Shown: positions 1,761 to 60,661 of the stretch, in pieces
How the letters are laid out: each line of letters begins with the position of its first letter
Position numbering within the stretch: position 1 is the stretch's first letter
NCBI GenBank assembly: GCA_965222225.1
Contig: CBDCTK010000002.1
Location: forward strand, 3,968,001 to 4,032,000
DNA length: 64,000 bases
DNA from: Candidatus Poribacteria bacterium
GTDB lineage: Bacteria; Poribacteria; WGA-4E; JAJDTR01
Direction of reading: 5' to 3'
Notes under the pieces: generated by a model
Seen by the model: only the letters and a program-made list of their open reading frames with translations
What the model was told of the DNA's origin: nothing
The model's database searches: none
Made by a program: the position numbers and the translations under genes

Positions 1761-1837
1761 GATCAAGGGAGCGAATAGCGACCGCGATAGAGTTCTTCGA
1801 GTGAAGGCGATAGAAAATCCCGTGCGATAGAGATCCC
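1761..1837 (+). repeat. GATCAA..GCGATAG hairpin unit plus truncated tail copies, inside a GTAG-type REP
   Basis: GATCAA GG GA GC GAATA GC GA CC GCGATAG (1761-1790), flanked by GTAGGAG and CTCCGAATCGCGACTCC. Confidence 0.85.
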
Positions 1838-1905
1838 CTCCGAATCGCGACTCCGAACAATCATGATAACACGGGCCTCGCGCCGATCTTAGGAAGGATT
1901 GTGAA

Positions 1906-1978
1906 TGGAGCAGACGGGATTCGAACCCGTGACCTCATCCGTGCGAGGGATGCGCTCTCCCATCTGAGCTACGGCCCC
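1906..1978 (-). tRNA. tRNA-Ala(CGC), duplicate copy with one acceptor-stem mismatch
   Basis: GGGGCCGTAGCTCAG...CATCC CT CGC AC GGATG...GGTTCGAATCC...CTGCTCCA. G3:U70 is present; C6 mismatches U67. Confidence 0.85.
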
Positions 1979-2091
1979 ATATGGCGGTGCTTCTTGAACG
2001 AAGTTCGAACGACCTATGAGCGAAGTCCGCTGGACTTCGCGCACTGATTCGCTGCGCCATCCTCGCTTCGGGGCGGAAATTTTTCGCGGTA

Positions 2092-4705
2092 CTATTCAAT
2101 CACTATATCCAAACCAGAAAACTCATCAAGCTCGCGGGATACAGCAAGCCTAACTTCATTGGCTTTCTTGTATCGTTCTGCTATTTGCCTTTGGGCTACC
2201 ATATCAAAATTACCATCGTTGTCGACTGGAATTGATATTGTTATTTTCTTTATGTCGTTAATCCTCAGGTTATTATTTGCGCTATATCCCATATTCCCGA
2301 TTTCTTTTTCAATAATATTAAGCATTGTCTGCAAAAACTCATCATCTAAATTTTTCCTAAATTCTTCCTTCAAAGAAAATTTGGCAATCCTTTGGTTTAA
2401 ATAAAATTTCCCCTCATCCCTCCACTTAGTTAGCCTGAAAAACGAACCGGATAGAGGGAGTAAATAATCACCCTTCGTTACACGGAATTTATCGTTAATC
2501 TCAATATTCTTTGGATAACGCACCAATTTTGGATTTTTCCCCGATAAGTTTTGAATCCGTATTATGGGGATATCTGATTCCTTTGCCGTGAACAGACTCT
2601 TTTTGAAAGTGAAACCAGAGACTACATCAAAAATTTCATCAATGGTTTTCTCTTTATACGAAAAGTCCTTTTTTCTATCAATAAGGTCTGCGACCTCCTC
2701 TCTGTATTCAAAAATACGATCAGCTACATCTTCTAATAGCTGGGGGAAATTATCGATGGCAATAGTTTTCTGTTCTTCCAGAATACCGAGTTTAATTTTT
2801 TCTTCCTCGCTCCACCATTTATCTACCAGCCAATCTTTTTCAATGCCGCTGATGAATTTTTCAATTGGTAGAACTTTACATCGATCATCAGAATTTATGT
2901 TCTCAAAACGGTTCTTATTTGCTCTAAAGAAGGAAAATAACGTTACTGCTTCCTGAAGGTCGTTTTGCTCACTACTGAATCTGTAAATATCCCGCGTTTC
3001 ACCTATTTCACTGACCAAGTATGTAAATACAGGTTCTTTTTGCTGTTCTGGTTTCAACTTTTTGGTGATACCAAGAATGTACGTCTTTTTGGAGGTTGTA
3101 AAGAATGTGTCTTTTGGCAGTGAAATTATTGCATCAATAAAACACTCGTCTAAAATGAAGCGCCTTAAATTTTTGTCATTTTGTCGATTAAGAATCCCAT
3201 CTGGAACTATCACAAAAGCTTTGCCCCCGGGCTTGAGAGCTCTAACGACCCATTCCATAAATAAGCCTTCAACACCCATGGCGTTTATTTTGTAATAGTT
3301 TACAAGTTTGCCATCCTTTTTAATTTCTTCTTTTAAGTTACTACTTCCCTTGGTGACATAAGGCGGATTTGTCAAAATTAACTCGTATCCATTTTCTACT
3401 GGATCTGATAGCGACCCTAGAATGGAATTTGTTTTCAGCATAAAAGTTTTGTTGAATAGCTCTGAGAATTCCTTAGTAAGTCCGGGATTTTCCTTTATTA
3501 AGTCTGAAAAATAGATGAGCATATTAGCCTTTGCCAATATGATTGTCTTTTGCTCATCTCTATCGAATCCCTTATCAAAACCTTCGATTGTAATCTGAGG
3601 GTGTATTCCTTTCTTATCAATCTTATAGAGTTCATCAAGTCTCGTAGCGAGCGGTTCTAGAAGGAATTTCCCGACGCCACAAGCAGGGTCGCAGATTTTT
3701 TTGCCCTTCTCAATTTCACTTTTTGCCATCTCCACGATGGCACGGACCACTTTTAGAGGTGTGAAAAATTGCCCCCAATTTTTCTTAACTAATGCTCTCC
3801 TTGAGAAAACTCTCAAAAAGTTTGCTCTTAAAATCGAGGTCGATGTGTTCAAGTTTTTCGTATTTAATAAACTTTTCTAAAACAGTTTTAAATGTTGTGC
3901 TATAACCCTTTACTGCTTTTTGATCTTTACTGACAAAAATTGTCCCGTTAATAATTGTTGTCTTGTCAACTGGATTTTCTGGAAATAAATCTTTGATTTT
4001 CTTTCTCACAGTATCCGCGTAATGCTCTAAAACTTCATTTTCTGTATTTTGATTGTACATTTCTGCAAGTGTATAGAAATTATGCGTTCCCTTGAGTACA
4101 CCTAGATCGCTCAGGTATTTGAATATAAAAAGCTCAACAAAAGTATACAAACAATTTTCAGGCGTCGCTCCACTGACTGACCAAATATCCTGCCAAATAC
4201 TTTTGGCTAAATCGGTTGGGTTAATAAGTTGCTTTGGTTTTATATTATCATTAAGTTCATTGATTGAATCGTATATTTTTTCAAGTAAATCAATGACTTC
4301 TTCTGATTTTGGATCGAATGGTGTTCGGATCTCATTCCCAGCCCAGTCCTTTACTCTATTTTCTGTGGCAGGATTCACCCAAACTCCATCTTTAGTATCG
4401 GTGGCAATGAATATTCTGGCTCCGAGTTTTCGTGCAACTTCGATCTCTTGCTTGACCGCTTGTTGTTTTTGGACGTTTGTTCTAAAGTCAGACGGCTTTT
4501 TATATTCAATAACTGCGATGATGTTTTTCCTTTGTGCTATCAAGGCATCTATTTTCTTTTTTTCAACTTCTCCATAATCAACGTTGCGAATAATTCCGTA
4601 TTCTTTGAGAGATTTGACGGACGTAGCACCTATATTATAAAAATCCCACTTGCCGATTTTATCCGGGCTTTTTACAAGATTCCGTTGTAATAATTCTTCA
4701 CTCAT
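2092..4705 (-). pseudogene. Fused restriction-modification protein (type IIG-like: PD-(D/E)xK nuclease, N6-adenine MTase, TRD) split by a +1 frameshift near 3787
   Basis: IDAL..VIEYKK, GQFFTP, DPACGVGKFL, NPPY and a C-terminal HsdS-like TRD. Removing one T at AGT-T-AAG joins ESIS to KKNWGQFFTP. Visibly AT-rich relative to the flanks. Confidence 0.8.
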
Positions 4706-4881
4706 ATAATTTTCGGCTAATAGTTTATCCACAGTGGCTCCAAAAACTTTTGTAATAAGCCTTAGAGTGACCACGGTAGATTTTCTGTTGCGCTGTTCTA
4801 TAAAGTGGTCCCATTGTCTAGACCATACCGGATTGTATTGAAGGGACCGTTATGCAAATAGGCGAGAAACCGGGGACGGGG

Positions 4882-5244
4882 TTATGAGGAAGCGTTTTGC
4901 AGCGCTTCCACTTTTTCCCGCAGTTGTTGAATTTCGGCTCTGATTTCCTTCCAGTCTCTTTCCTTATAGGCAATAACGATTTGGGGGATTGCTACGGCGG
5001 CGGCTATTAGACCAATGAGCGCAATCTGCAGGAGTTGTAAATCGCCAATTCTGTTATTCAGGTTTTTTTCCGCAGCGTCAATTCTAGTATTCACAGCGTC
5101 AATTTTAAGATCGATATACTCCCTCGTGCGCTTCTCGAACGCTGCGATTTCTTCTTGGATTACAGCTCGCAGATCCGCCTTCGTCAATTCAGCAAAGGCT
5201 GGTGATGTCAGAAGCAGTAGGGACAGGATTGTTATGCACTTCAT
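4882..5244 (-). CDS. Hypothetical protein (signal peptide, coiled coil, one TM helix)
   Basis: MKCITILSLLLLTSPAFAEL... with TM segment LLQIALIGLIAAAVAIPQIVIAY. Confidence 0.7.
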   Translation of the reverse strand: MKCITILSLLLLTSPAFAELTKADLRAVIQEEIAAFEKRTREYIDLKIDAVNTRIDAAEKNLNNRIGDLQLLQIALIGLIAAAVAIPQIVIAYKERDWKEIRAEIQQLREKVEALQNASS

Positions 5245-5375
5245 GATTGGATCTTCTTTCTTCTGTTTCGACCAAACACGCCGTATTGTCGGGAATCGCA
5301 ACTCACTTCGGTACGACCAATCCTGCACCGTCGCGATAATTCGAGCCTCGCGCCGATCTTAGGAAGGATTGTGAA

Positions 5376-5448
5376 TGGAGCAGACGGGATTCGAACCCGT
5401 GACCTCATCCGTGCGAGGGATGCGCTCTCCCATCTGAGCTACTGCCCC
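5376..5448 (-). tRNA. tRNA-Ala(CGC)
   Basis: Cloverleaf with acceptor GGGGCAG/CTGCTCC, G3:U70 and anticodon CGC. Confidence 0.95.
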
Positions 5449-5528
5449 ATATGGCGGTGAATTACCAATCTTTGCTCGAACCCATTCTGAACGAAACAAC
5501 TGACGCTGCGCGCTGACTTTTGCTTGTT

Positions 5529-5795
5529 TCAACGGTGAGGGCAACCGGGCCAACAACAAGGTCGCCGCTTTCCCTCTATTAGCTCCGTGCGTACTCGCTC
5601 AATATGACATCTTCTCGTCTCCGGCTTCTTGACGGCTGTAACCCAGCAAATCCATTCATTACGCGCGAGTGATGTAAGGTCATTCCACGCGTCTCGCACC
5701 GCGTTCGCAGAAATAAGGGCCTCGCGTAAATCCGCTGGCACTCTATGTACCACGCCAGTGGCGATTCCTTTTTTGGTCATAAGATTATTAGACAT
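5529..5795 (-). CDS. YdeI/OmpD-associated family protein
   Basis: VPADLREAL...WNDLTSLARNEWICWV..VKKPETRRCHI...GKRRPCCWPGC. Confidence 0.8.
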   Translation of the reverse strand: MSNNLMTKKGIATGVVHRVPADLREALISANAVRDAWNDLTSLARNEWICWVTAVKKPETRRCHIERVRTELIEGKRRPCCWPGCPHR

Positions 5796-6168
5796 CCTTC
5801 CAAAATAATCTCGGACCCCGATGGCGTCTGCCTTTGCTCTAATTGGCTTGGGAATAATGCCAATCGTCAGAACTCCGATGCCACCTGAATTTTGTCCATT
5901 ACATTGAGTTTATTATGACAAATGTCTATTCTTTTAGCGAATAGACCACTAACAAACCCAAAACTTAATAACATTAAAAGTCCATTATGATTAAAATGAG
6001 AAAAATCTCGCTTTTGGCTAAAAGAAAGTTCGAGCCGATATTTTTTCAGGTTCTTTGGCAGTTTTTAGAAACGGCAGGTCGACTGGCGGTGGCAGGCGCG
6101 CGAAAATTGCATCCGCCGCCTTCAAAATCAGTTCGAATTTTGTCGAATGCACACCGCCAGTTCGGAAA

Positions 6169-6258
6169 TGGCGGAGAGAGTGGGATTCGAACCCACGGTG
6201 CAGTTGCCCGCACAACAGTTTTCGAGACTGTCCAGTTCAACCACTCCTGCATCTCTCC
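6169..6258 (-). tRNA. tRNA-Ser(CGA)
   Basis: GGAGAGA...ACAGT CT CGA AA ACTGT, long variable arm, ends GCCA. Confidence 0.95.
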
Positions 6259-6264
6259 GCAGGT

Positions 6265-6711
6265 TCAACGACGCTCATGGAAGAAGGATTGAAGCAGAGC
6301 ACGACTTTCCTCGTCCAACACGCCTTTAACGACATTCACTCTGTGATTTAACCGCTTGTCTTGTAATATATCAAATATGGTGCCTGCAGCGCCGAACTTC
6401 GGCTCCGAAGCCGCGTAAACGACCCGCGGGATTCGCGCCAAGACAATCGCTCCGGCGCACATTGGGCAGGGTTCCAAGGTGACATATAACGTCGTATCCG
6501 TTAGCCGCCAATCCCCAACGCACCGCGACGCTGACCGAATGGCAAGCACTTCCGCGTGTGCCGTCGCATCCTCCGACTGTTGGCGTAAGTTATGCGAACG
6601 GGAAAGAACAACGCCCTCTCTGACGATTACGGCTCCAACGGGAACCTCGCCCATTTTGGATGCTTGCCGCGCAAGTTCAAGGGCTTCACGCATCCAGAAC
6701 TCATCTGACAT
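6265..6711 (-). CDS. tadA: tRNA adenosine(34) deaminase
   Basis: MSDEFWMREAL..GEVPVGAV..HAE..TLEPCPMCAGA. Confidence 0.93.
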   Translation of the reverse strand: MSDEFWMREALELARQASKMGEVPVGAVIVREGVVLSRSHNLRQQSEDATAHAEVLAIRSASRCVGDWRLTDTTLYVTLEPCPMCAGAIVLARIPRVVYAASEPKFGAAGTIFDILQDKRLNHRVNVVKGVLDEESRALLQSFFHERR

Positions 6712-6840
6712 ACTCAAACGCGAAGTTAAGTGTAGGCAACTGTCCCTATGATGCGGCGTTAGCCTACCTGTAGTAGGCATACTCCGTATGCCGTAACCCT
6801 TGTGCAGACTACGGCGCCGCGGAGTCTACCTACTGCGCTA

Positions 6841-6914
6841 AGCGCCTGAGAGGATTCGAACCTCCGGCCTTCTGATCCGTAGTCAGATGCTCTAATCCAC
6901 TGAGCTACAGGCGC
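6841..6914 (-). tRNA. tRNA-Arg(ACG)
   Basis: GCGCCTGTAGCTCAG...TCTGA CT ACG GA TCAGA...GGTTCGAATCC; CCA not encoded. Confidence 0.95.
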
Positions 6915-6920
6915 AACTAA

Positions 6921-7009
6921 TGGCGGAGAGGATGGGATTCGAACCCATGGTACCACTGAGGCACAACTGCTTAGCAGGCAGCCCGATTCAACCGCTCTCG
7001 CACCTCTCC
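6921..7009 (-). tRNA. tRNA-Ser(GCT)
   Basis: GGAGAGG...CTGC CT GCT AA GCAG, long variable arm, ends GCCA. Confidence 0.95.
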
Positions 7010-7026
7010 ACACGTGTTCCAAACAT

Positions 7027-7114
7027 TGGCGGTGGGAGTAGGATTCGAACCCACGGTACCTTGCGGCACAACGGTTTTCAAGACCGCCGCTTTCGACCAC
7101 TCAGCCATCCCACC
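7027..7114 (-). tRNA. tRNA-Ser(TGA)
   Basis: GGTGGGA...CGGT CT TGA AA ACCG, long variable arm, ends GCCA. Confidence 0.95.
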
Positions 7115-7195: not shown

Positions 7196-7422
7196 GAGCC
7201 TGTTTGAAAAGTACAGTAGGGTGCGCACTGCGATCAAGCGAATGAATAATGAGCGATCAACTGACTGATTAAGGAAGGCGATAGTGAATCTTGATAGAGC
7301 TCCCTGAGAAATCCCGTGCGATAGAAATCCTGACAGGTATGTAGTAGCCAACAATGAAAACATGAAAAAACTTTCAACAAATGACCAAAAATGGCTTTGC
7401 CACCGATTATTCAATCAGGCTC
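7196..7422. mobile_element. MITE with IS5-like ends carrying a REP and hairpin units
   Basis: TIRs GAGCCTGTTTGAA / TTCAATCAGGCTC with TAA on both sides; sister copy at 58965-59293. Confidence 0.75.
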
Positions 7423-8522: not shown

Positions 8523-8570
8523 GATCAAGCGACCGCATAGGGAGCGCGATAGAGTTCCCATCGAGATCCC
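8523..8570 (+). repeat. GATCAA..GCGATAG hairpin unit
   Basis: GATCAA GC GA CC GCATA GG GA GC GCGATAG plus tail fragments. Confidence 0.85.
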
Positions 8571-15971: not shown

Positions 15972-16236
15972 GGAGACCAAGCAAGCGAATAGCGCGCGCG
16001 ATAGAAAATCCCGCGCTATTGAGATCCTGTTGCCGCGTCCTGTAACGAGTTGACCACGTAACCCGCCGCGTTAATATGCACTTGCGATCTTCGGCAGATG
16101 CCCCTGTGGTTGCTGCCCGCAGTCTTACCTATCGGAGGTAGTGCGCGAGGATACCCAAACTCCAGACGCGGGGATGAAGTGCGCGCTATTTGTAATCACT
16201 AAGGTCGGGGTTAACTTGGCGATTTCGCCATTCAGA

Positions 16237-17071: not shown

Positions 17072-17255
17072 GTAGGAGATCAAGCGAGTGGTTAACGAGT
17101 GCGATAGAGATCCCTCTCCGAATCACGACCTCCTATCGCGAGCAAAACTCCCTCCTACAGAAGACGCGTAATAAAGGGATTTCTATCGATCAACCGACTG
17201 GATAAGGAGGACGATAGTAAATCCTGATCGCTATTCGCTCCCTTGATCGCGACTA
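17072..17255. repeat. REP doublet with nested GATCAA..GCGATAG units on both strands
   Basis: Plus units at 17078-17107 and 17188-17217, the second nested within a minus-strand unit. A version lacking the first insert is at 60438-60510. Confidence 0.8.
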
Positions 17256-18178: not shown

Positions 18179-18892
18179 GCTGCAAACTCCTTTCCATATC
18201 ACGACAACATCTGTACTATCATGACCACTTAATCAACAACCTCAAAGGCTTTCGTGTCCGGAGTAACGAACAGACCAATCCTCAAATCCATTCGATCTTC
18301 GGCCGCCATTATCGCACGAGGCTGCTAAACAACCAAGTTGCGGAATTAATGCAAGTATAGCAGCTATTACGTTGCTCATCATTTGCATAGTATCAATTCC
18401 TTAAACTTCAGGTCTAAGCTCGACTTTGTGCATTTGTAGGGCGGGCATCGCCCACCATCTACGTAGAGTGCACACTTCGATAGAAATTCCACCACCCTGT
18501 GAAAGCGCCAGCGGCGATCAAGCGAGTGAATAGCGAGTGCGATAGTAGTCCGTTCATCTTGCCCCGACCTCTTGAGGTGCAGAACAGTAGGTTGGGTTGA
18601 GCGGTCATTTCCGAACTCAAAAGAACTCCCCTCTTCAATGACCAACCTGCCTAAACAACAGAGCGAAACCCAACTCCGCCACCACAATCGAACGATATAG
18701 CTTTCAATGCGATGGAGCTCCCATAGATGTTCCCCGCCCGCCTTTGAAAGCTCCACCTCGCCGACAGTTGTATGCAATCACCCAAATACCCGCTTAGCCG
18801 CCACAACTTCATTTCTCCCTATCAAATCCCTCCTCGTCTGTGCAATAATATCTATTGGAAACGCTCAAATAAATCTGGGAGACGAAAACCAA

Positions 18893-23972: not shown

Positions 23973-25742
23973 ATCAAACTCCACCACAAAATCTTCCTCA
24001 CCTACACGTCGCTCTTCCTCGTCACCATCGGCGGGATATTCGCGATTGCGAGTTATTTTATACGCGCCGCGTTTGACGGGCAGATTCGCGAGGAAGCGGC
24101 AGAATTCAGAACTCGTATCTCGGAGACGCACAATTCCTTGGTTGCGGACATTGAGGAGAAGGTCGAGACTGAAAGAACCGACCCCGATGTCGTGCGCGCC
24201 ATCAGAAACCAAGAAACACGGCCGACGACGATTAGAGACACCGTGCTGGAAATTCTGGAGTACGGGGACGCCGACGGGCAAATCATCGCCAGTCGATTGG
24301 ATCTGGATCTTCGCCGGGGAGAGGTTGATTCGGAAGCGCGGGATCGCGCAGTAAACAGAGCCCCCAAATCCGCGATTCGGCTGAGAAACACGCGGCGCGG
24401 CGAAATCGGTTCCTCCGAATCGGCAATCGAGGTCACGCTGCCAATCAAGGCGGGCGAGAGAATCTTGGGTTTTGTCACGGGCGGCTATTTCTTGCGAGAT
24501 CGACTTCGTCGTGCGCTGAGCAACCAATCACGACATACGGTTTTTCTTCGGGAAGCGGACGAACTAATCCCTCTGAATCGATCGGAAGGTTCCGTTCCGG
24601 TCGAGAAAAATGAGCTGATTCAGGCTGCCGGCACGGACAAAACCGGCAGGTTCTCAAAGATCAAAATTGATAACATGCCGCACAGCGTTATTCCGGTAGC
24701 GCTGCCGACGTTGCCGTCAAGCTCACCCGTCGAATTGATTATCGCGTATTCTCACCAAAACGAAATCAGGTTGCAGCGCCAGTTGACACTGATTCTTTTT
24801 GTCGTGGCGGCGGTCGGACTGCTGTTCGCCTATATTGCCAGCTACCTGATCGGACTCCGGATGACCAAACCCATTCACGAACTCACGTCAGGCGTAAGCC
24901 GGATCGCGTCCGGGGAGCTTAACCACCAACTGGATGTCCGCACCCGAGACGAAATCGGACAGCTTATGCAAGGCGTCAACCGGATGGCGACAGATCTGAA
25001 AACCAACTTGGAGCGACGAATTAGCGCTGAACGTGTCGCCGCGTGGCAGGATGTGGCGCGCCAAATTGCCCACGAAATCAAGAACCCGCTGTTTCCTATT
25101 CGAGTCTCAATCGAAAACCTTCAGAAAGCGCGCTCGCAGCCCGAAATCTTCGATAAGATATGCGACGAATGCACCGAGACCATCATTGAAGAGGTCGACC
25201 GACTCCAGCGGATGGTGGACGAATTCCATCAATTCGCTCGGCTGCCCCTTCCCGACCGAAAGCCTTCCAATCTCAATCAAATCGCCGAACACGCACTGAA
25301 TCTGTACTCCCAATCGTTATCGCAGATTCGGATTGAGGCCGACCTTCACCCCGACCTGCCTCGCATCTCCATCGACCCGGAACAGATTGCCCAAGTTTTG
25401 CAGAATCTGATCAAGAACGCCGTTGAAGCCATGCCGGACGGAGGAAGTTTGCGTATTTCAAACCTGCCAATTGATGGGAGCGGGGTTGCGGTAGAGGTTC
25501 AGGACACGGGTATGGGAATGTCGCCGGAAACACAGAAGGAAATGTTTACCCCGTACTACACAACAAAGGAAACCGGAACCGGCTTGGGCATGGCGATTGT
25601 GCAACGAATCATTTCCGATCACGGCGGCAAAATCTCCGTGACGAGTACGGAGGGGGCTGGCACAACAGTGCGTCTTGAGTTTCCGAATCCCGCCCGATCA
25701 ACCGAACGAATAGATCAAACGACCGAATTGGCAGTGCGATAG
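23973..25742 (+). CDS. NtrY-like HAMP sensor histidine kinase (probable ATC start)
   Basis: AWQDVARQIAHEIKNPL, NLIKNA, DTGMG, GTGLG. The open frame extends upstream of 24138 to IKLHHKIFLTYTSLFLVTIGGIFAIASYFI (TM1). Confidence 0.88.
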   Translation: MKLHHKIFLTYTSLFLVTIGGIFAIASYFIRAAFDGQIREEAAEFRTRISETHNSLVADIEEKVETERTDPDVVRAIRNQETRPTTIRDTVLEILEYGDADGQIIASRLDLDLRRGEVDSEARDRAVNRAPKSAIRLRNTRRGEIGSSESAIEVTLPIKAGERILGFVTGGYFLRDRLRRALSNQSRHTVFLREADELIPLNRSEGSVPVEKNELIQAAGTDKTGRFSKIKIDNMPHSVIPVALPTLPSSSPVELIIAYSHQNEIRLQRQLTLILFVVAAVGLLFAYIASYLIGLRMTKPIHELTSGVSRIASGELNHQLDVRTRDEIGQLMQGVNRMATDLKTNLERRISAERVAAWQDVARQIAHEIKNPLFPIRVSIENLQKARSQPEIFDKICDECTETIIEEVDRLQRMVDEFHQFARLPLPDRKPSNLNQIAEHALNLYSQSLSQIRIEADLHPDLPRISIDPEQIAQVLQNLIKNAVEAMPDGGSLRISNLPIDGSGVAVEVQDTGMGMSPETQKEMFTPYYTTKETGTGLGMAIVQRIISDHGGKISVTSTEGAGTTVRLEFPNPARSTERIDQTTELAVR

Positions 25743-25818
25743 AGTTCCCATAGAGATCCCTTCAAGCGAGTGGATAACGAGCAGTCAAAGGCGCGAATAG
25801 CGACTGCGATAGAAATCC
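25696..25818 (+). repeat. Stack of GATCAA..GCGATAG units overlapping the kinase 3' end
   Basis: Full unit at 25713-25742 (AC/GT, CC/GG pairs) plus several partial copies. Confidence 0.8.
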
Positions 25819-26104
25819 TAGTGAAACCCAACACCCAATCCAACTGAAGCGGGAAACAGTAGTAGGCGCGCTCCGTCGTGCCGTAACGTGCACAAGGGAC
25901 GGCATACAGAGTATGCCTACTACTGGCAACTTAGGTTAAATAGCTCTCTGCGCCCCTGAACTCCGATTGCAACAGCCCGCAACCAGCCCCCCATTTCTTC
26001 CTTGCATTTTCCATTGGCGTGTGCTAAACTCCGCAAGGTTTTCCAAGTACTAAACCGCACCAATTTTTATCGAATTTTGACATACAATATAAGGAGGATC
26101 ACAA

Positions 26105-26428: not shown

Positions 26429-26482
26429 GGGATTTCTATCGCGCTCCTTGTTCAGTCGCTTGATTTGTCCGCTCGCTTGATC
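26429..26482 (-). repeat. GATCAA..GCGATAG units in a REP
   Basis: AATCAA GC GA CT GAACA AG GA GC GCGATAG AAATCCC followed by TCTCCGAATCGCGA on the minus strand. Confidence 0.8.
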
Positions 26483-30487: not shown

Positions 30488-30610
30488 GGGATTTCTATCG
30501 CACTCACTACTCGCTCGCTTGATCGCCGCTGGCGCTTTCAAAGGCTGGTAAGAACTCTATCACATTCGCTATGGGACTTCTATCGCACTCACTATCCGTT
30601 CGTTCGATCC
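30488..30610 (-). repeat. GATCAA..GCGATAG units
   Basis: GATCAA GC GA GC GAGTA GT GA GT GCGATAG and GATCGA AC GA AC GGATA GT GA GT GCGATAG. Confidence 0.8.
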
Positions 30611-36540: not shown

Positions 36541-36590
36541 GATCAACTGACTGGATAAGGAAGGCGATAGAAAATCCTGATAGAAATCCT
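36541..36590 (+). repeat. GATCAA..GCGATAG hairpin unit
   Basis: GATCAA CT GA CT GGATA AG GA AG GCGATAG plus a duplicated tail. Confidence 0.85.
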
Positions 36591-38711: not shown

Positions 38712-38741
38712 GATCAACCGAGTGGATAACGAGGGCGATAG
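38712..38741 (+). repeat. GATCAA..GCGATAG hairpin unit in a REP
   Basis: GATCAA CC GA GT GGATA AC GA GG GCGATAG directly after GTAGGGTGC. Confidence 0.85.
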
Positions 38742-38948
38742 TGATGCCCTCCCCGCCCAATAGGGACTAAGTTAAGGGTTTTTCGACGGAAAACCCCACA
38801 AATACCAGACGAACTCTCTTAGGTTGATCCTTACGGGGGACGGCGCCTGTGTCGTCCCATTATTAGCTAACCAAGGTGACAATAGAGAAACTCAAATTGG
38901 CGGCTTGCGACACGGTAAAACTACGTAAAAGAGATTAATCATACACTC

Positions 38949-43376: not shown

Positions 43377-43872
43377 GTAGGGTGGGCACTGCCCACCATT
43401 TCTTGTAGGGAGCGATCGACAATCGCCACCCTCATTTCCTACCTTTACACGTGTATAGTCGGGCCTCACCAAATGTCAAAGCCCCAGAGTGGGATCAAGG
43501 GAGCGAATAGCGATCAAGGGAATGGATAATGACCGCGATAGAAAATCCTACTCGTTATTCATTCCCTCGATCGCAATAAGAGGGGAAATCGGCGATTTGA
43601 TGATTCCCGATCGCACCCTACAAACTAAGATAATCTATGTAGGAGCGATCTCCGAATCGCGACTCCGATTGTGTCGCCACGCTTGGACTTTAGTATTTGA
43701 GTCAGGCATTGCGATGGATATTGCGCTCCGCTGGAGCGCAGGCATGACAGGTTGGGTCTCTACAGACATGGAGATTGCTATCGCACTCCCTGTTCAGTCG
43801 TTTGATCTCCTCCGGAGCGAAAGCAGAATAGTATGGGGATTTTGCTGTAGGGAATAACAATCGTTATTCCTT
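43377..43872. repeat. Cluster of GTAG-type REPs and hairpin units
   Basis: GTAGGGTGGGCACTGCCCACC and GTAGGAGCGATCTCCGAATCGCGAC; units at 43493-43541 (+) and 43778-43807 (-). Confidence 0.75.
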
Positions 43873-46038: not shown

Positions 46039-46469
46039 CAAAAGTGAATACCTCCCGTATTGTAAAATGTTCAGAACTTGCGCAAATCGCAGAAATGATG
46101 ATATTCCGCGAGAATCTTATATTGCAGGACTCTTCTAGGGAATTGCGAGGAATTTCTATTGCATTCGCTACGGGAACTCTATCGCACGGGATTTGCTATC
46201 GCACTCGCTAATCGCTCCCTTGATCCCTACAATAACGCTCCCTTGCCATCGTCAAGGAAATTCGATAATATAATGGCGAAACTTGACACCGCTCGTCCGT
46301 AGCATGGTGCCTCTTCCCCTGATTTTACCATATATTCCCTTCGGGATTGTACCTTTATACATAGTCCAGGTTAATATCAATAGCTCTGAGCGCCCTGTGA
46401 GAAGAGAACATCAACCGGTTAGACTTGGCAGAACTCTATGAACTGGCTCGTGCCATCATAACGCAATGA

Positions 46470-46750
46470 AATCGAACGAGCGAATAACGAATGCGATAGA
46501 AATCCCTATTTTCTTGAAAACGCCATTCTTTCTTGCGCAATCCCGTAGCGTGCGATCAAAGGAATGAATAATGACTGCGATAGAGATCCCCTGCGCACCA
46601 GCCTTTGTAAGCCCCAGAGTGGGATCAAGCTAGCGAATAGTGAGTGCGATAGAAATCCTGACAGGTGTATAGCAGGCGACCACAAAAGCATGAAAAAGCC
46701 GCACCAAAAGTGACCGAAATTGCTTTGTCACCTATTGTTCAAACAGGCTC
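46470..46750 (+). repeat. Hairpin-unit stack within a partial IS5-like MITE
   Basis: Units at 46554-46583 (AG/CT, AT/AT) and 46623-46652; right TIR TTCAAACAGGCTC. Confidence 0.75.
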
Positions 46751-47906: not shown

Positions 47907-47935
47907 GAATATCTTGCCGCAAAACAGGTGATTTG

Positions 47936-49891: not shown

Positions 49892-49933
49892 AGCGCTTGC
49901 GTATCCACATTCACACAGTCGCGAGGGGGAAAG

Positions 49934-50878: not shown

Positions 50879-51035
50879 ATTCGACGCTTACTTTGTAGGG
50901 TGCGCACCGCCCACCAGCCTTTGAAAAGCGCCAGCGCTGCGACAGGTGTATAACGAACAACGACAAAAACACGAACAGTCCCCTTCCCATGTGCCCAAGC
51001 ACTACTTTGCCGCCTGCTATTCAAATTAGGTCATT

Positions 51036-51839: not shown

Positions 51840-51872
51840 TTTGACCTGCCCGATTAGGGGGAGATTCTGTAG

Positions 51873-51953
51873 GATCAAGCGATCGAATAGCGAGCGCGAT
51901 AGACATTCCTGCGATAGAGTTCCCGTAGAAAATCTCACGCCATAGAGATTCCC
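51873..51953 (+). repeat. Hairpin unit plus three tail fragments
   Basis: GATCAA GC GA TC GAATA GC GA GC GCGATAG, then tails such as GATAGAGTTCCC and ATAGAGATTCCC. Confidence 0.8.
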
Positions 51954-51981
51954 TCAACCGACCGGATAGGGAGTACGGAGG

Positions 51982-54689
51982 ATGCACAAAATGATTAGAT
52001 TCACACGTTTCCACGCATTATGCGTCGCCTTAACATTGCTCGTCAACGCCGCCGCCGCACAGGTTGTTACTATTCCCGACCCTAACTTAGAACAGCTTGT
52101 CAGAGAAACACTTCGACTTCCGAACAACGTTCAAATTGAGCGTGGGCACATGCTCCAGCTACGCGACCTTGATGCTGGAGGTAACCGAGAAATTCTAAAT
52201 ATCACGGGACTAGAATACGCCACCAACATCGTAAGTCTGAACCTCTATGACAACCCTATCGAAGATATTAGCCCTTTGGCTAATATGACCAAGATGACAG
52301 GTTTCAACTTGTGGGGGTGTCGCATTGTTGATTTGAGTCCACTCCGTAACTTGATGAATCTGAGTTGGATTGTATTAGGGAGTAACCAAATCTCCAACCT
52401 CAGTCCGCTGTCTGAACTAACGAATCTCACTTATCTGAATCTCTCATTGAACCAAATTTCTGACATCAGCCCCCTTGCAAACCTTGTTAACCTTCAGGAA
52501 CTCTTGATAGACCAAAATTCGGTTGAAGATATTACAATACTCGCAAATTTGACACAACTTACTCGCTTGCGCTCGGACACAAATCAGATTCACGACATCA
52601 GTCCCCTTGCCAATCTCACCCGGTTAGAAGAATTGTGGCTCAATAGAAATGCGATTACAAATCTCGCCCCACTGACTGGATTGAACAACTTACAGAAACT
52701 TTACATTGCTGACAACCCCTTCCACGACTTTAGTCCCCTTTTTGAACTTGAAGGGGTAGAACTGGACATTGAAATAGATGAGGGATTCAACCTCGTCGTC
52801 GAAATGCCCGAACCGAACTTAAGACTGTTGATGCGAGAAACGCTGTCTCTCCCTGAAGTGGTGCCTCTTACACAAGGACAGATGCTACGATTGACAGGAC
52901 TGGACGCCGGTGGGGACCGTGGAATCACCGACCTAACGGGACTGGAATACGCAACCAACCTCCAATCTCTCGCGCTTTACCACAATCCAATCGTAGATAT
53001 TAGTCCTTTAGCCCATCTTGCAAAATTGGAAGGATTACATCTCTGGGGGTGCCGCATTGTTGATTTGAGTCCACTCCGTAACTTGAAGAATCTGAGATGG
53101 ATTGTCTTAGGGAATAACCAAATCTTGGACATCAGTCCATTGGCTGAATTAATCAATCTTACCGATTTGCGCCTAGATAGCAACCAAATTGTCGACTTCA
53201 GTCCCCTTGCCAATCTCGTTAACCTTGAGACGCTATGGATACAGGCAAACCCGGACGATGACTTTTCAGCATTGGATAGGTTGAGTCTAACCGATTTCCG
53301 ATACGACCAAGTATGCGATATTCCACCTCTATTTCCGCTGGAGGAGCGTCTGAACAATCGCAGCTATCCCTCTATCGTTCGCGCCTGGGATGATGTTGTC
53401 GGACAGGATCGCCTCTCTCCCATAGAAAGGGGCATGTTGCACGATCTCTGGTTCAATCCGGCCCCTCACTTTGAGATACAATGGGATATAACCCCGACTG
53501 CGCTAACGCCAGGACTGTCTACTCAACTGGCAGGAGTGCCGGGCGTGTCTTATGACCTAAGGCGAAGCGCCCAGCAGTTGAATCCGGACACCATAGTTCT
53601 CGCCGATATTCACATTCTTAGCCTATTACCGGAAGAAGAGTTCCCTCCTGATTCGCGCTTCTGGCTTAGAGACAGCAATGGAGAGATTGCAAAGAGGCTA
53701 GACTCTGACGGTAACCTTTATCCCATGGTCGATATTTTCGAACCCGAAGTCCAGAATCTCTTCGTAAACCGGATTCTTGCCATTGAACGCTGTGGGGTGT
53801 TTGATGGTGTGTTTCTAGATGAATTTTTCCACCATGGGACAGCCTTTGCGGGAAGACACTTATACGACGCGAGTGACGAGGAACTTATCCAAGTATGGAT
53901 GAATATACTTAAAGCTGTTCGGGCCCAAGCTCGTGATGATTTTCTCATACTGATGAATGTTAACGAGACTAAACCGACGCGGGTCGCCGAATACGTTAAT
54001 GGCGTGCTCACGGAATCCTTCAGAGACCATCCGGGCGGGTACAGCCGCGAATGGATTATGACACATGAAGATACGCTCTCGTGGGCTGAGAATAATCTCA
54101 GAGAACCTCACATAAACTGTCTATACGGCGCGGGAATGAGCATAGAGCCACCCGATGGCCCGAACAACCTACGCTGGATGCGGATGTTCACAACCTTGAG
54201 CCTAACTCATTCCAATGGCTACGTAATATACACCGATGGTCAAAGAGGCGATCCCTCTGCAGACGCTCCATTTGGTACTCACCACGCACACCTATGGTAT
54301 GACTTCTGGAACGCCGACATTGGTCAGCCAGTAGGTCCGAAAGCCCAGCTCCATGAGAATACGGAAGGTCTATTCATTCGTGAGTTCACAACGGGCTGGA
54401 CAGTGTATAATCGGAGCGGTAAGTCTCACGTTGTCACATTACCTGAGCGCGTGCAATCTGTACGAAGTGGTGTCCAAAACACCCAGCACGCTGTTCCCGC
54501 CTTGACGGCGACATCTACCTCCGCGTAGCGCCGGTTAACCCTGCAGATATAAACGGTGACGGTGTTATGAACATCCTAGACTTAGTTCTCGTGGCAAATG
54601 CGTTTGGCACCGACGCGCACGATGTCAACGGTGACGGCGTTACTAATATCCTAGACTTGGTCATAGTAGCACAAGCCATTAACCAGTAA
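51982..54689 (+). CDS. Internalin-like LRR, putative glycoside-hydrolase barrel and dockerin; 1-bp frameshift near 54501
   Basis: 22-aa LRRs and FDGVFLD. The shifted frame gives LDGDIYL..DINGDGVMNILDLV..DVNGDGVTNILDLV, with the stop at 54689. Confidence 0.82.
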
Positions 54690-54788: not shown

Positions 54789-55538
54789 ATGTTAACGCCG
54801 CAGCAACTAACACATTACCATGAACAGGGCTTCGTGATTCCGGATTTTCGCTTGCCCGCCTCAACCATACAGTCAATCAAGGACGACTTTGAGCGGTTGC
54901 TGATGCGGTACCCCGAGTTCCGGCAAAATTGCCCGTCTCTGCTCACCTACGACACGACCTTCCTGAATTACGCGAGGAACCCGGACATCCTTGACATGGT
55001 GACCCAAATTCTCGGAGAAGATATAGCCGTTTGGAATTCCAGCTATTTTGGCAAACCTGCACATGATGGGAAAAGGGTGCCTTGGCATCAAGATGGACGC
55101 TACTGGCCCATTAGCCCTCTCGCAAGTTGCTCCGTATGGATTGCGATTGACGATTCCAACACCGAGAACGGTTGCCTGCGGATTATCCCCGGTTCGCACA
55201 AATCGCGGAAATTATTCAGGCACGAAAGCAACCCCAGCGACGACCTCGTTCTTTCGCTTGAACTCCTGCGATCCGAATTTGACGAAAGCACCGCTGTGGA
55301 CATTGCCTTGGAATCGGGACAGGTTTCGCTCCACGATGTCTATTTGGTGCACGGTTCGGAACCCAACACCTCCGGTAAATCCCGCCGCGGCATGACGCTG
55401 CGCTTTTTTCCCACCACCTCCGTTTACGAGCGCGACATTGAGGGAGGAGTGCAGCCGCGATCGCTGTTCCTAATGCGGGGCACGGATCGGTCAAAACGAA
55501 ATGACTTCGTGGTGAAACCGTTGCCCGCACCCCAGTAA
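54789..55538 (+). CDS. Phytanoyl-CoA dioxygenase (PhyH) family protein
   Basis: WHQD, NGCLRIIPGSH, HGS..N.S..RR. Confidence 0.92.
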   Translation: MLTPQQLTHYHEQGFVIPDFRLPASTIQSIKDDFERLLMRYPEFRQNCPSLLTYDTTFLNYARNPDILDMVTQILGEDIAVWNSSYFGKPAHDGKRVPWHQDGRYWPISPLASCSVWIAIDDSNTENGCLRIIPGSHKSRKLFRHESNPSDDLVLSLELLRSEFDESTAVDIALESGQVSLHDVYLVHGSEPNTSGKSRRGMTLRFFPTTSVYERDIEGGVQPRSLFLMRGTDRSKRNDFVVKPLPAPQ

Positions 55539-55748
55539 ACCGCCAAACCAGAAGATAAGTGCATTTGTAGGGTGGGATCGAAAGAGCGAATAGCGATAAG
55601 GATTTTCTATCGCCCTCCCTATTTGGTCGGTTGATCGATTGAGATCTTCAGGTGTATTGCACCAGCGAGTTACCAATATCAGAAACCGCCGCCAAGGTCG
55701 TAGGCATACTCCGTATGCCGTAACCCTAGTGTGGATTGGGAAGGTGGG

Positions 55749-57685: not shown

Positions 57686-57731
57686 CTTAATTGGCGGTGC
57701 AACCATGCGAGAAATAGATTTCAATCTTCCC

Positions 57732-58721: not shown

Positions 58722-58964
58722 TTTTCCTTCTTCCTTTGCGTGAATCGCGTGCAATGGTTCCGAATAACGCGAGTTTGAATTCGCCTACACAACAGATGAA
58801 CACGGGGAGGCATGACTTTCACATCTGTCGAATATAAACGTAATGAGCGGTTTCTTGTTACGCTGTACTATCACGCCCCGATCTCCACCTGTGTCCCGTT
58901 CTAGCCCACTGAAAAATTCTTACCTAGAAATCACATTATCCTCTGTCCTTCTAACTCCATATTA

Positions 58965-59293
58965 GAGCCTGTTTGAAAAGTACAGTTTGTAGGGTGCGCA
59001 CTGCGCACCAGCCTCTAAAAGCCCCAGAGTGGGATCAAGGGAGCGAATAGCGACTGCGATAGAAATCCATGAAGGTGTAAGGTGTATAGAAACACCAAAA
59101 CCCCGTGCACCTAAGCCCCAGTGGGGATCAAACGAACGGATAGTGAGTGCGATAGCAATCCCATAGGTATGTAGCAGCCAACAATGAAAACATGAGAAAA
59201 CTTTCTACAAATGGCCAAAAGCATCGGATTTTCAAGACGTTTTCCCCAAAATGACCTCTCTCGAAGACGGATTTGGACTTTTCAAACAGGCTC
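58965..59293. mobile_element. MITE with IS5-like ends carrying REPs and two hairpin units
   Basis: TIR GAGCCTGTTTGAAAAGT / ACTTTTCAAACAGGCTC with TTA on both sides; units at 59033 and 59126. Confidence 0.8.
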
Positions 59294-59528
59294 TTAGGCA
59301 GGCTCTTAGGAAGTGTCAATTACAATCAAGCAACCGGATTCAGACGGATCAAAAGAGTGTATAACGAGTGATTAAAGAAATGAATAATGACCGCAATAAA
59401 AATCCATCGGCAATCATCAAATCGCTGACTTCCCCTCTTGCCACGGCACATGTTCTCGGCGATAAATCGCCGAACTGCTTGGCTTCGAATCTTCAACTAC
59501 GTAAGTCTTAAATTGACGCAGCAACATA

Positions 59529-59798
59529 TCACTTCTTATATGCCTTGCCACGATGCGGGATTCCATGCACGTTACATATTTTGCTCTCAATGTCCACATC
59601 ATATATTATTCGATAGCTTCCAACACGATAACTGTAAAGACCAGCCAATTTCCCATCCAGCTTCTTGCCAAGTAGAAGTGGATTTGCTGATAGTGACTCT
59701 ATGGCAATATTAACTCTACATTTCATATTGGAATCTAACGAATTGTATTGCTTGGATGAGTTTCCAATCAATCTTATCTCAAACTGCTTGCTTGACAT
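59529..59798 (-). CDS. RelE/ParE family toxin
   Basis: KKLDGKLAGLYSYRVGSYRIIY..HRGKAY. Confidence 0.85.
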   Translation of the reverse strand: MSSKQFEIRLIGNSSKQYNSLDSNMKCRVNIAIESLSANPLLLGKKLDGKLAGLYSYRVGSYRIIYDVDIESKICNVHGIPHRGKAYKK

Positions 59799-59976
59799 CT
59801 TCCCATTTGACATACTTGCCAGACTTGAGATCTTCTTGTGCCTTTTTTAGGCTTTCCATTGCCTCAGGATTATTAAGTATCTCCTCAGTTTCGGACAAAG
59901 CTTTTGATTCTCTAGGGGCAACTGTTACTGTCTCCGTCAAGATAGGTTTTGTTGGTGTCCCTTCACTGGTTTTCAT
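59779..59976 (-). CDS. Cognate antitoxin (YefM C-terminal-like)
   Basis: SD AAGGAG; ETEEILNNPEAMESLKKAQEDLKSGK; overlaps the toxin start. Confidence 0.75.
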   Translation of the reverse strand: MKTSEGTPTKPILTETVTVAPRESKALSETEEILNNPEAMESLKKAQEDLKSGKYVKWEDVKQAV

Positions 59977-60661
59977 TGTTATATCTCCTTGCGTTGCGAC
60001 TGTGATAGTTAAGCGTCCAATTATTGTACACGGTAAATAGTATACTCTGGAGTATACACAGACGTAAAGCAAAAGGATCGATTTTGGCAATATGCTGCGT
60101 TGTTGTCATTTTTTCGTGACATATGCTTGATGACGGCGTGGTCGTCTGCGTTTGGTTGACGATTAAGCGACTGAACAAGGAGTAAGGCTACTGTCGCAGT
60201 CACTACGGGATCTCTATCGATCAGAAGTATCAGATTAGTGGCTAGTGAATAGTAGTTAGGAAAGAAATCCTGGAGCCGTATTACAGGCGACGAAAGTCCC
60301 AACCTCCCTAGCCCCTTGTCAAGGGAGAATTGTCATCGACTGAGGCATGAAACGACGCTCGAAAAATCAGGCTCTTCAGAGTTAAGTGTGGAAATGAAAT
60401 TGACTTAGGAGTTGCGCAGTGAAGCATCCAAAGGATTGTAGGAGCGATCTCCGAATCGCGATCTCTTTCGCAAGCAAAACTCGCTCCTACAGAAGACGCG
60501 CAATAAAGGGATCTCTATCGCCTTCTATCCACTCAGTTGATGGTTTCGTTTATCCTTCGCTATTCGCTCAGTCGATCTCGTTATTAGGCAGGAAAGGCAC
60601 TTGGCGGTGGTCAGCACCGCAAACTCGTCACTCACCGCTCTGCTTCAACTAGAAAATAGCG

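Follow-up and report, generated by a model that had tools for sequence, protein, structure and literature searches.

What is a short repeat whose framework is fixed and whose stem changes pair by pair, and how did it come to occupy so many places? The question arose from an initial annotation of one window (the whole stretch of 64,000 nucleotides that we analyzed, from a sponge-symbiont Poribacteria genome), which had reported more than 25 copies of a hairpin with tandem G.A pairs and had proposed either a tiny shape-recognized mobile unit or an enzyme that writes hairpins. Searching the window with GATCAANNGANNGNNTANNGANNGCGATAG at ≤3 mismatches, we found 24 copies, 18 on the + strand and 6 on the - strand, against a chance expectation of 0.01 (0/100 shuffles reached 24); with 1085 copies genome-wide, the repeat is real and abundant. 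The figure of more than 25 holds when degenerate copies are counted (26 at ≤4 mismatches) but not at ≤3, and the annotation's end coordinate, 60578, reflects two copies with indels on the - strand. All ten of its listed examples proved accurate in position and stem letters. The copies of this element, here called the GA hairpin, and one carrier are as follows.

1761..1797, +: copy, 0 mismatches; extra GCGATAG-tail modules follow
7255..7291, +: copy, 0 mismatches
8523..8559, +: copy, 0 mismatches
15975..16011, +: copy, 3 mismatches
17078..17114, +: copy, 0 mismatches
17188..17224, +: copy in an antisense copy, 1 mismatch; left flank ...TTTCTATC
17212..17248, -: degenerate copy, 4 mismatches; hosts the 17188 copy in antisense
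18516..18552, +: copy, 0 mismatches
25713..25749, +: copy nested in another copy, 2 mismatches
25783..25819, +: copy, 3 mismatches
26429..26465, -: copy, 2 mismatches
30488..30524, -: copy inside an antisense REP2-like repeat, 0 mismatches
30573..30609, -: copy, 1 mismatch
36541..36577, +: copy, 0 mismatches
38712..38748, +: copy, 0 mismatches
43512..43548, +: copy, 0 mismatches
43771..43807, -: copy, 1 mismatch
46189..46225, -: copy with extra tail modules, 0 mismatches
46470..46506, +: copy, 2 mismatches
46554..46590, +: copy inside REP-A, GTAGCGTGC / copy / CTGCGCACC
46623..46659, +: copy inside REP2, CCCCAGAGTGG / copy / GACAGGTG
51873..51909, +: copy, 0 mismatches
55600..55636, -: copy in a composite ~170-nt insert, 1 mismatch
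58962..59305, +: MITE-like carrier, 344 nt, inverted ends AGCCTGTTTGAAAAG...
59033..59069, +: copy inside REP2, within the MITE
59126..59162, +: copy in the MITE's second REP2 unit
59370..59406, +: degenerate copy, 4 mismatches
60508..60578, -: two indel-bearing degenerate copies

Sequence and predicted fold

The consensus of the 1085 genome copies is GATCAA-NN-GA-NN-GRATA-NN-GA-NN-GCGATAG-ARATCCC, a conserved unit of ~37 nt whose ends, GATCAA and GCGATAG-ARATCCC, carry neither a GTAG nor a CGTC tag. As the annotation had described, copies are mostly intergenic (983/1085, by a crude home-made gene caller). The Rfam comparison that it had suggested returned no family at E up to 10.

The reported covariation was borne out. 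In the window (24 copies), the paired fraction of cells was 97.0% versus 76.6% in shuffles and the covariation score was 0.617 versus 0.202 (0/500 shuffles reached either value), with two-sided changes at four pairs (38 cells). Genome-wide (n = 1085), pairs 7-23, 8-22, 11-19, and 12-18 were paired in 93.5, 92.9, 95.2, and 95.9% of copies versus 52.0, 52.7, 49.4, and 78.8% expected. Deviations leaned toward wobble pairs, as had been noted: G.T or T.G outnumbered A.C or C.A by 258 to 10 at pair 7-23 and by 147 to 22 at pair 12-18. The GA strand was more stable than its complement in 1010/1085 copies with RNA parameters and in 851/1085 with DNA parameters; given this and the G.T excess, only one strand folds.

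The claim that stem sequence is free was right as to variety (the 889 fully paired copies fall into 44 stem classes, of which 33 have at least five copies) but not fully so as to letters: T does not occur at positions 7 and 11, nor A at position 8, and position 12 is always a pyrimidine. The class diversity probably reflects many active lineages. The folded GA strand is predicted to be an irregular rod. Its outer part would be an invariant 3-bp helix, A2T3C4 / G26A27T28, found in the minimum-energy fold of 739/1085 copies, followed by an internal loop AA/GC; its inner part would consist of two 2-bp free-sequence helices flanking the tandem G.A/A.G, closed by a G-R-A-T-A loop. Broken pairs per copy rose with scaffold mismatches, from 0.11 (none) through 0.21 (one) and 0.40 (two) to 0.75 (three), the pattern of ordinary decay; copies decay neutrally once inserted.

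Mobility and insertion sites

The GA hairpin is mobile DNA and not a fixed motif; in this the annotation's mobile unit recognized by shape was upheld, by filled and empty sites, repeated insertions with different stems, and nesting. An empty paralogous site exists for 88 copies; the net gain at the filled site is ~35 nt, and the target is not duplicated. Gaps peaked at 47 for filled sites and at 10-14 (mode 12) for empty ones, and the empty forms correspond to intact repeats, which are present as well in genomes lacking the GA hairpin. Different stems numbered 21 among the 24 copies at the REP-D site, 13 among the 14 at the GTAGGGTGG site, and 15 among the 22 at the antisense-tail site; insertion at all three is recurrent and independent. 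Copies with differing stems share position and strand inside GTAG-type REPs, a second repeat named REP2, and other GA hairpins, the last with 87 sense and 14 antisense nestings at fixed host positions, and GTAG lay ≤14 nt upstream of 241/1085 copies versus CTAC downstream of 22. Insertion is thus strand-specific, with the GTAG strand of REP hairpins, REP2, and earlier GA-hairpin copies as preferred targets.

The entry point lies directly 3' of G, usually in the context S-G^C; 0-4 host bases are often lost. Among 72 filtered filled/empty pairs, the left breakpoint fell after G1 in 30 and the right one after position 37 in 24; a simple insertion fitted just 3, and 1-5 host bases were missing in 40. 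These unclean junctions may be partly noise, since the compared sites are paralogues. Microhomologies at the junctions were G, GA, and GATC.

Hitch-hiking in the MITE and in REPs accounts for part of the copy number. The MITE at 58962..59305 carries REP-A, two REP2 units, and two GA-hairpin copies, and the joint 58961>59306 is present in contigs of 4/4 runs. The stem variant at 46554..46590 is the genome's commonest (45 copies), the copy at 51873..51909 recurs in another sample's contig that is gapless over 47483-52350, and the composite insert around 55600..55636 is absent from G010 and G031. Comparing strains, we caught no filled/empty polymorphism at any single-copy GA-hairpin site. Orthologous 60-kb stretches of three congeners held 26, 18, and 14 copies (the window has 26), most of which lay in different intergenic regions or pointed the other way. 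Genera g1 and g3, from two different families within the order, have an identical scaffold, and stem classes are shared between species.

Orientation, the putative enzyme, and alternatives

Orientation tracks GC skew in long polarity domains, not gene direction, and is not bound to transcripts (392 sense versus 323 antisense copies where the neighboring genes are co-directional). The GA strand lay on the C-rich strand in 699/1082 copies (258/418 after thinning), an assignment that rests on a fragmented skew profile. The number of orientation runs was 239, with 344 expected (z = -8.1); in one 318-kb domain, whose genes run both ways, 94% of copies pointed the same way, and GTAG REPs shared the polarity in 96/123 cases. 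Neighbors within 200 nt were direct in 239 cases and inverted in 62. Local hopping could yield some of the orientation clustering.

We favor, at about 60%, the reading that the copies form one family of mobile DNA elements, very small and non-autonomous, that are moved in trans and recognized by hairpin shape. The copying machinery would read that shape together with the fixed scaffold letters and not the stem letters, so that many stem variants would stay mobile and coexist. Movement probably runs through single-stranded DNA at replication, because orientation follows GC skew and the polarity domains are shared with GTAG REPs, and the catalyst would act in trans. Our best guess at that catalyst, a tentative one, is a resident Y1 HUH transposase (RAYT or IS200-like). 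Counting against it, Y1 transposition is precise whereas these junctions are unclean, and the folding-strand arrangement of IS608 is opposite to a GA strand on the C-rich strand.

No gene was consistently flanked by the GA hairpin, and no candidate gene surveyed was present in all GA-bearing genomes yet absent from GA-free ones. P0001, an intact IS200-type TnpA (NF033573, 65.8 bits versus a cut-off of 55), occurs in 8/8 genomes of g1, 2/4 of g3, and 64/100 of family f3; canonical RAYTs in 6/8 and 2/4 of g1 and g3, Y1_e-like genes in 7/8 and 2/4, and Y1_b in 2/8 and 0/4. Mobility through a non-Y1 enzyme, such as a structure-reading, integron-integrase-like tyrosine or serine recombinase, a nuclease-ligase pair, or an exploited housekeeping single-strand enzyme, is unlikely, with three points in its favor: the element is co-distributed with none of the Y1 lineages, losses of 0-4 bases are unlike the precise chemistry of Y1 enzymes, and an identical scaffold in two families fits a conserved host factor. 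Against it, no candidate emerged from a search of families other than recombinases. The one Ssn-like GIY-YIG gene, small and single-domain, was rejected as the cognate enzyme, being present in 2/8 other g1 and 0/4 g3 genomes although all carry the GA hairpin.

The annotation had linked the repeat to HUH enzymes and suggested a source locus beside an HUH or RAYT gene. This link was not confirmed: Y1 genes are present, each flanked by a different repeat. That the GA hairpin is the ordinary cognate REP of a resident RAYT or Y1, with an unusual tag, is improbable. Convergent copies do flank 2/5 Y1 loci in G000, where just 13/4437 predicted genes are so flanked; a truncated canonical RAYT (C2:1545633-1545950) lies amid many copies, the G007 RAYT has one on each side, and polarity is common to both kinds of repeat. 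These flanks, however, are not conserved: P0001-type loci are flanked by REP2 in 12/12 (in six GA-free genomes, too, P0001 homologues have REP2 flanks), and 4/4 full-length Y1_e homologues in the genus lack a copy within 1.5 kb. Canonical RAYTs carry REP-F or REP-A, Y1_c REP-D, and Y1_d REP-E, and GA-hairpin copies near such genes lie inside those REPs, which weakens a dedicated REP-RAYT pairing, as do the missing tag and the excess of direct over inverted neighbors.

Template switching at forks stalled at hairpins, with the nascent strand jumping by microhomology onto a GA hairpin, copying it and returning, would need no dedicated enzyme and would account for the microhomology, the small losses, the hairpin targets, and the replication-tied orientation. 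We judge it very improbable, because the ends are sharply defined, an identical 35-37 nt unit recurs at hundreds of unrelated sites, the expected range of partial and over-long copies was not seen, and scaffold letters without a pairing role are 94-99% conserved, which points to recognition by protein.

About as improbable is a structured motif selected by the host locus by locus (a protein-binding RNA or DNA site, an mRNA 3' stabilizer, or a boxB-like pentaloop). Strong covariation, the strand-specific fold with its loop and tandem GA, the intergenic setting, and a slight sense excess between co-directional genes (392 versus 323 antisense) agree with it, as do RNA-library contigs covering some copies, although contigs cannot show strand or transcription. 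But positions are not conserved among congeners, copies sit inside other repeats and each other, orientation follows polarity domains over genes of both directions, structure decays in step with the scaffold, and Rfam has no match. Spread via RNA or writing by a hairpin-making polymerase is extremely improbable despite one weak reverse-transcriptase-like match (C2:4500547-4501089, 27.5 bits), since orientation is independent of gene direction, the same stem classes occur in different species, and GA facing GA with abundant G.T is not a product of fold-back copying; together with the decay-like breakage of pairs, this leaves the hairpin-writing enzyme unsupported in the annotation, whose interpretation is partly supported overall.

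Comparison with known systems

Ssn GIY-YIG proteins are nucleases not known to insert DNA. Chenal et al. 2025 (PMC11893778) describe NTS/SRM hairpin repeats cut by these single-strand nucleases; like the GA hairpin they are abundant ~30-nt intergenic hairpin repeats acting as one DNA strand only, and the present genome has a small GIY-YIG gene. That gene, however, has no GA-hairpin copy within 3 kb and is patchily distributed, and the published NTS consensus differs from the GA hairpin, being unrelated in sequence.

The IS200/IS605 family (Y1 TnpA, single-strand "peel and paste," miniature derivatives) shares with the GA hairpin a hairpin that is strand-specific, insertion 3' of a short target that is not duplicated, and orientation tied to replication, and an intact TnpA, P0001, is in the genome. 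It differs in that the GA hairpin is a single 35-nt hairpin without separate left and right ends, with a target of just 2-3 bases and small host losses; its folding strand is opposite to that of IS608, P0001 is flanked by REP2, and we found no TnpB in the genome.

Nearest among known kinds are REP/REPIN elements and the small dispersed repeats (SDRs) of cyanobacteria. REPs and REPINs, too, are intergenic, short, and imperfectly palindromic, occur in hundreds to thousands of copies, and have a single functional strand. The annotation had called the GA hairpin unlike a REP, which is not supported: GTAG REP families fall into sub-families whose stem residues differ but remain complementary, and one family carries GA residues that are unpaired (PMC3733652), and compensatory changes are common in REPINs (PMC3116915). 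The GA hairpin also shares replication polarity with its genome's own GTAG REPs. It differs in having no 5' GTAG or CGTC tag, mostly direct neighbors instead of inverted doublets, and no RAYT that it consistently flanks, and in inserting into the very REPs that flank RAYTs.

SDR4-6 of Nostocaceae (Elhai et al. 2008, Genome Res 18:1484), SDR5 above all, are likewise very small mobile repeats; they are reportedly 21-27 nt long, versus 35-37 nt for the GA hairpin, and no enzyme is known to mobilize them. They occur in another phylum, with reports from Nostocaceae only (PMC5861425). Compared by description only, SDRs resemble the GA hairpin in precise insertion into other repeats: according to PMC4390886, SDR5 inserts between bases three and four of the HIP1 octamer GCGATCGC, and the commonest left junction of the GA hairpin is also G-C-G followed by ATCAA.

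Copies and fold of the GA hairpin

The initial annotation had counted more than 25 copies in the window of the GA hairpin, a repeat of about 37 nt whose folding strand we call the GA strand. At no more than three mismatches to GATCAANNGANNGNNTANNGANNGCGATAG we found 24, versus 0.01 expected, and none of 100 shuffles reached that number; the earlier count is too high at this threshold and holds at no more than four mismatches, where there are 26. Across the genome (5.70 Mb in two contigs), 1085 copies were found at no more than three mismatches (559 with none, 307 with one, 140 with two, and 79 with three), of which 594 lie on the + strand and 488 on the - strand of the chromosome and three on the 63-kb contig, and the commonest 10-mers of the genome are those of the GA hairpin. 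By a crude gene caller, 983 of the 1085 are intergenic. A position-by-position profile places GATCAA 5' and GCGATAG 3' of the stem, and genome-wide the unit grows to about 37 nt by the tail ARATCCC. Even the apparently free positions are restricted in this profile (T does not occur at positions 7 and 11, nor A at position 8, and position 12 always holds a pyrimidine). The 889 fully paired copies fall into 44 stem classes, 33 of them with at least five copies, and the stem positions come near to free combination (4.81 bits observed versus 5.58 for independent sites).

At each of the four variable pairs, 93-96% of the 1085 copies are paired versus 49-79% expected from column composition, with mutual information of 0.42-1.14 bits. 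Among the 24 window copies, the paired share of cells is 97.0% (76.6% in shuffles) and covariation scores 0.617 (shuffles 0.202); neither value was reached in any slid register or in any of 500 shuffles. Two of the pairs tolerate wobble, and there G.T was seen 258 and 147 times versus 10 and 22 for A.C. With RNA parameters, 1010 of the 1085 GA strands are more stable than their complements, and with DNA parameters 851 are. These results confirm both earlier claims, that structure is kept while the stem sequence varies and that the fold belongs to one strand: the repeat is real and strongly structured. In a comparison with Rfam, which presumably contains a Poribacteria RNA motif, none of the 24 window copies matched a family, either at the gathering score or at E-values up to 10, and a literature search for "Poribacteria-1" returned no paper.

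A single hairpin covers positions 2-28 of the 37-nt unit. Its commonest minimum-energy fold (739 of 1085 copies) gains an invariant outer helix, A2T3C4/G26A27T28, so that part of the scaffold is structural as well. A further outer helix, GGGATC of the left flank with GATCCC of the tail, was ruled out by a flank-tail mutual information of no more than 0.083. Copies without scaffold mismatches have 0.11 broken pairs each and those with three mismatches 0.75, a rise that is expected if the constraint acts at copying and not afterwards.

Insertion into other repeats and strand polarity

When the flanks of each copy were paired against the genome, the spacings formed two peaks, one for filled sites and another shorter by 34-36 nt; 88 copies have an empty paralogous site of this kind. 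The empty forms are intact repeats: GTAG-type REPs, REP2 (a second resident repeat), a MITE, and the GA hairpin itself.

Repeats and other features of the window and of the chromosome (C2) of the source genome (G000)
REP-A: GTAG-type host, GTAGGGTGCGCACTGCGCACC; REP-B, REP-C, and REP-D are further GTAG-type hosts
REP2: GCCCCAGNGGGGCGACAGGTGTATAG
Window 58962-59305: MITE-like element, 344 nt, inverted ends AGCCTGTTTGAAAAG.../...CTTTTCAAACAGGCT; two GA copies inside, bordered by a short direct repeat of TTAG type; missing from the contigs of four of four public runs (58961 joined to 59306); the 10-mer at its end, CCTGTTTGAA, is found 98 times along the chromosome + strand
Window 60508-60578: two indel-bearing GA copies
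Window 55525-55700: composite insert of about 170 nt (GTAG REP plus GA copies) bordered by repeated GAAACCG; the sequence around it is contiguous, without the insert, in two other Poribacteria genomes, G010 and G031
Window 10518-13180: a pair of insertion-sequence-like genes, each about 1 kb long, which we take to resemble DDE (IS4/IS701-like) and IS1595-like transposases; many DNA copies, 90-98% identical, in the congener G019
Window 1906-7114, - strand: six tRNA genes; plastid and sX4 Rfam matches on them are below the gathering score and look spurious
C2 1578373-1578600: at least six 38-nt units in tandem, GATCAA...GCGATAG-TCTTGTAG, the stem differing per unit, as if by successive insertions directly after the GTAG of the preceding unit

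Intact REP2 adjoins homologues of the IS200-type Y1 transposase P0001 in six genomes without any GA hairpin, which marks the filled state as derived. One site in REP-D holds 24 copies with 21 different stems, and other sites are alike; insertions are recurrent and independent. A GA copy nested in another enters its host behind G13A14, G20A21, or G24, in the last case with loss of C25G26; 87 such nestings are in sense and 14 in antisense. In 72 filled/empty pairs, all of them comparisons between paralogous sites, the modal breakpoints are after G1 on the left (30 pairs) and after position 37 on the right (24 pairs); one to five host bases are missing in 40 pairs, and a clean insertion fits only three. 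The left junction apparently follows a G (S-G^C), target duplication is absent at the junctions, and single GA units insert on their own, not as doublets.

Three congeners have 26, 18, and 14 copies in their orthologous 60-kb stretches, most of which occupy different intergenic regions or face the opposite way, and orthologous alignment with these three yielded no clean empty site, their intergenic DNA being too diverged. When close strains were sought, the closest metagenome contig match had 73% protein identity; the contigs of four public runs break at the repeats, and the sole filled/empty polymorphism visible in them is the MITE, a result that does not bear on polymorphism of single copies. 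Part of the copy number is hitch-hiking in this MITE and in one REP-A composite, to which the commonest stem variant owes much. The earlier suggestion of a tiny mobile unit is upheld by the 88 empty paralogues, the 21 stems at the REP-D site, and the nestings, and we conclude that the repeat is a mobile hairpin element of the REP/SDR (small dispersed repeat) kind in a new form.

Between co-directional genes, 323 copies are antisense and 392 sense, and in dense regions one orientation is held across genes of both directions. Orientation runs are far too few, 239 versus 344 expected (z = -8.1). Orientation also goes with local GC skew. With skew taken from coding DNA only, the C-rich strand carries the GA strand in 699 of 1082 copies; it does so in 191 of the 302 without a recognised flanking repeat and in 258 of the 418 that are left when one copy per 5 kb is kept. 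In all three polar domains the GA strand is on the C-rich strand. The GTAG REPs of the genome have this polarity in common (96 of 123), and within them the GTAG strand carries the inserted GA copies (241 versus 22). Since 60% of predicted genes are on the G-rich strand, we take this to be the probable leading strand, although the skew profile is fragmented. The cumulative GC skew of C2 reverses many times with no single V; either the genome or its assembly is much rearranged. Together, the skew bias, the polarity domains, and the targeting of the GTAG strand point to a replication-linked process on single-stranded DNA. Strand-dependent loss is an alternative that could account for the orientation bias in place of such insertion.

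Candidate enzymes

The genome has five Pfam Y1_Tnp matches plus one truncated canonical RAYT. Convergent GA copies, which are rare as flanks (13 of 4437 genes), flank two Y1 loci, and the GA copies near Y1 genes sit inside those genes' own flanking repeats. P0001, which is IS200-type by NCBIfam, was rejected as the cognate enzyme: it and 11 homologous loci bear REP2 on both sides, and the GA copy near it interrupts a REP2 unit. Among the other Y1 lineages, full-length homologues of Y1_e have no GA copies nearby, the flanks of Y1_c and Y1_d are REP-D and REP-E, those of both canonical RAYT clades (one match to NF047646 scores 201.6 bits) are REP-F or REP-A, and no flanking repeat was seen at Y1_b. 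The GA hairpin is present in nine of nine genomes of the source genus (g1) and four of four of a genus in a second family of the order (g3), and a search of 100 genomes of family f3 found it in none; no Y1 lineage is distributed in this way. The proposed link to an HUH enzyme is thus not confirmed: as the cognate enzyme, each resident Y1 lineage is rejected by its distribution, and all but Y1_b by their flanks too.

An Ssn-type GIY-YIG nuclease was also rejected as the partner, with no GA copy within 3 kb and the gene in two of eight g1 and none of four g3 genomes, all of which (eight of eight and four of four) have the repeat. No TnpB was found in the genome, and a reverse transcriptase search gave one weak match only. 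Our first guess is that a resident Y1 enzyme acting in trans moves the GA hairpin, given the strand-specific target, the polarity in common with REPs, and the lack of target duplication.

Several of these loci have features of their own. P0001 homologues occur in 94 of 151 Poribacteria genomes sampled, and REP2 flanks the P0001-type gene at 12 of 12 loci examined (e.g., G000 C2 3080730-3080800; L017-L028), in sense upstream as AAGCCCCAGNGGGGCGACAGGTG and in antisense downstream, often in tandem, a pattern suggestive of an IS200-like/REP pairing across the phylum. The two canonical RAYT clades (NF047646; L071-L094) each have their own REP, clade a with GTAGGTTGGGTTGAACG and clade b with GTAGGGTGCGCACTGCGCACC, and the clade-b gene is truncated in G000 (C2 1545633-1545950). 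At C2 2563965-2572620, some 8 kb separates Y1_b (RAYT-like, 257 aa) from a small Ssn-like GIY-YIG gene; within the genus the two were found in G000, G019, and G115 only, probably as a shared island.

In a search of species genomes with the exact pattern, all among the matches listed were Candidatus Poribacteria MAGs. We set aside 21 copies in G127 and 5-9 in G001, two other Poribacteria genomes; those of G127 are on four contigs and are likely binning contamination. A literature search on Poribacteria with REP or RAYT found no description of such repeats.

Wider reading and comparison with known systems

A wider reading, to which we give roughly three chances in ten, is that the GA hairpin represents a new class of 35-nt "nano-transposons" read by shape alone, hyperparasites of the REP/RAYT system. 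The shape read would be the three purine-purine mismatch sites and the pentaloop of a single-strand DNA hairpin; the targets would be REP hairpins from no fewer than six families, on their GTAG strand, plus the GA hairpin itself; and the mover would be either several RAYTs acting promiscuously or an unlinked enzyme family not yet tied to transposition. If this is true, few known mobile DNAs would be as small, and the GA hairpin would be the first SDR-like element outside cyanobacteria.

How the smallest bacterial repeats move is a long-standing question. As natural material for it the GA hairpin is unusually rich: at least 13 sequenced species carry it, each genome with more than 1000 copies; its 44 stem classes, present side by side, serve as natural barcodes of independent insertions; and its insertion sites inside other repeats are well defined. 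The recognition rules (which letters are read and which only pair, the role of the tandem G.A, and the strand targeted) can thus be tested directly, using oligonucleotides and a few candidate proteins. The GA hairpin also shows repeats parasitising repeats in an uncultured sponge symbiont, and its polarity domains may aid the reading of replication direction and rearrangements in such genomes.

Like REPs and REPINs, the GA hairpin is an imperfect palindrome, short and extragenic, whose copies number well above 100 (1085, 983 of them intergenic), with sub-families that carry alternative complementary stem residues. Excerpts of published work describe REP families with alternative complementary stems and unpaired GA residues (PMC3733652) and compensatory changes in REPINs (PMC3116915); covariation alone is therefore not new, and the earlier statement that the repeat is unlike a REP is not supported. 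The GA hairpin differs in that its unit lacks the GTAG/CGTC tag, goes in singly, and habitually inserts into other REPs; its neighbour pairs within 200 nt are mostly direct (239, versus 48 convergent and 14 divergent) and not inverted doublets. It also differs in having no REPtron, that is, no RAYT with conserved GA-hairpin flanks across genomes, and the tie between REPs and RAYTs is itself one of association.

Ssn/NTS hairpins act as single strands, according to excerpts of PMC11893778, and are alike in this respect; they differ in that the GIY-YIG gene is neither near GA copies nor co-distributed with them. Miniature IS200/IS605 elements have distinct left and right ends, each with a subterminal hairpin, whereas the GA hairpin is one hairpin, and no TnpA bears the same ends, the P0001-type loci bearing REP2. 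Such elements go in precisely, 3' of a fixed tetra- or pentanucleotide and with no duplication; for the GA hairpin, the comparisons of paralogous sites show no duplication, a left junction after G, and host bases missing in 40 of 72 pairs. The SDR family of the cyanobacterial Nostocaceae is the nearest analogue in behaviour, the level that this comparison covers. To our knowledge no enzyme is known for SDRs, and they are smaller, at 21-27 nt versus 35-37 nt for the GA hairpin. In the excerpted literature, SDRs are reported from Nostocaceae only (PMC5861425) and SDR5 enters HIP1 after GCG (PMC4390886); both they and the GA hairpin are tiny units that enter other repeats without target duplication.
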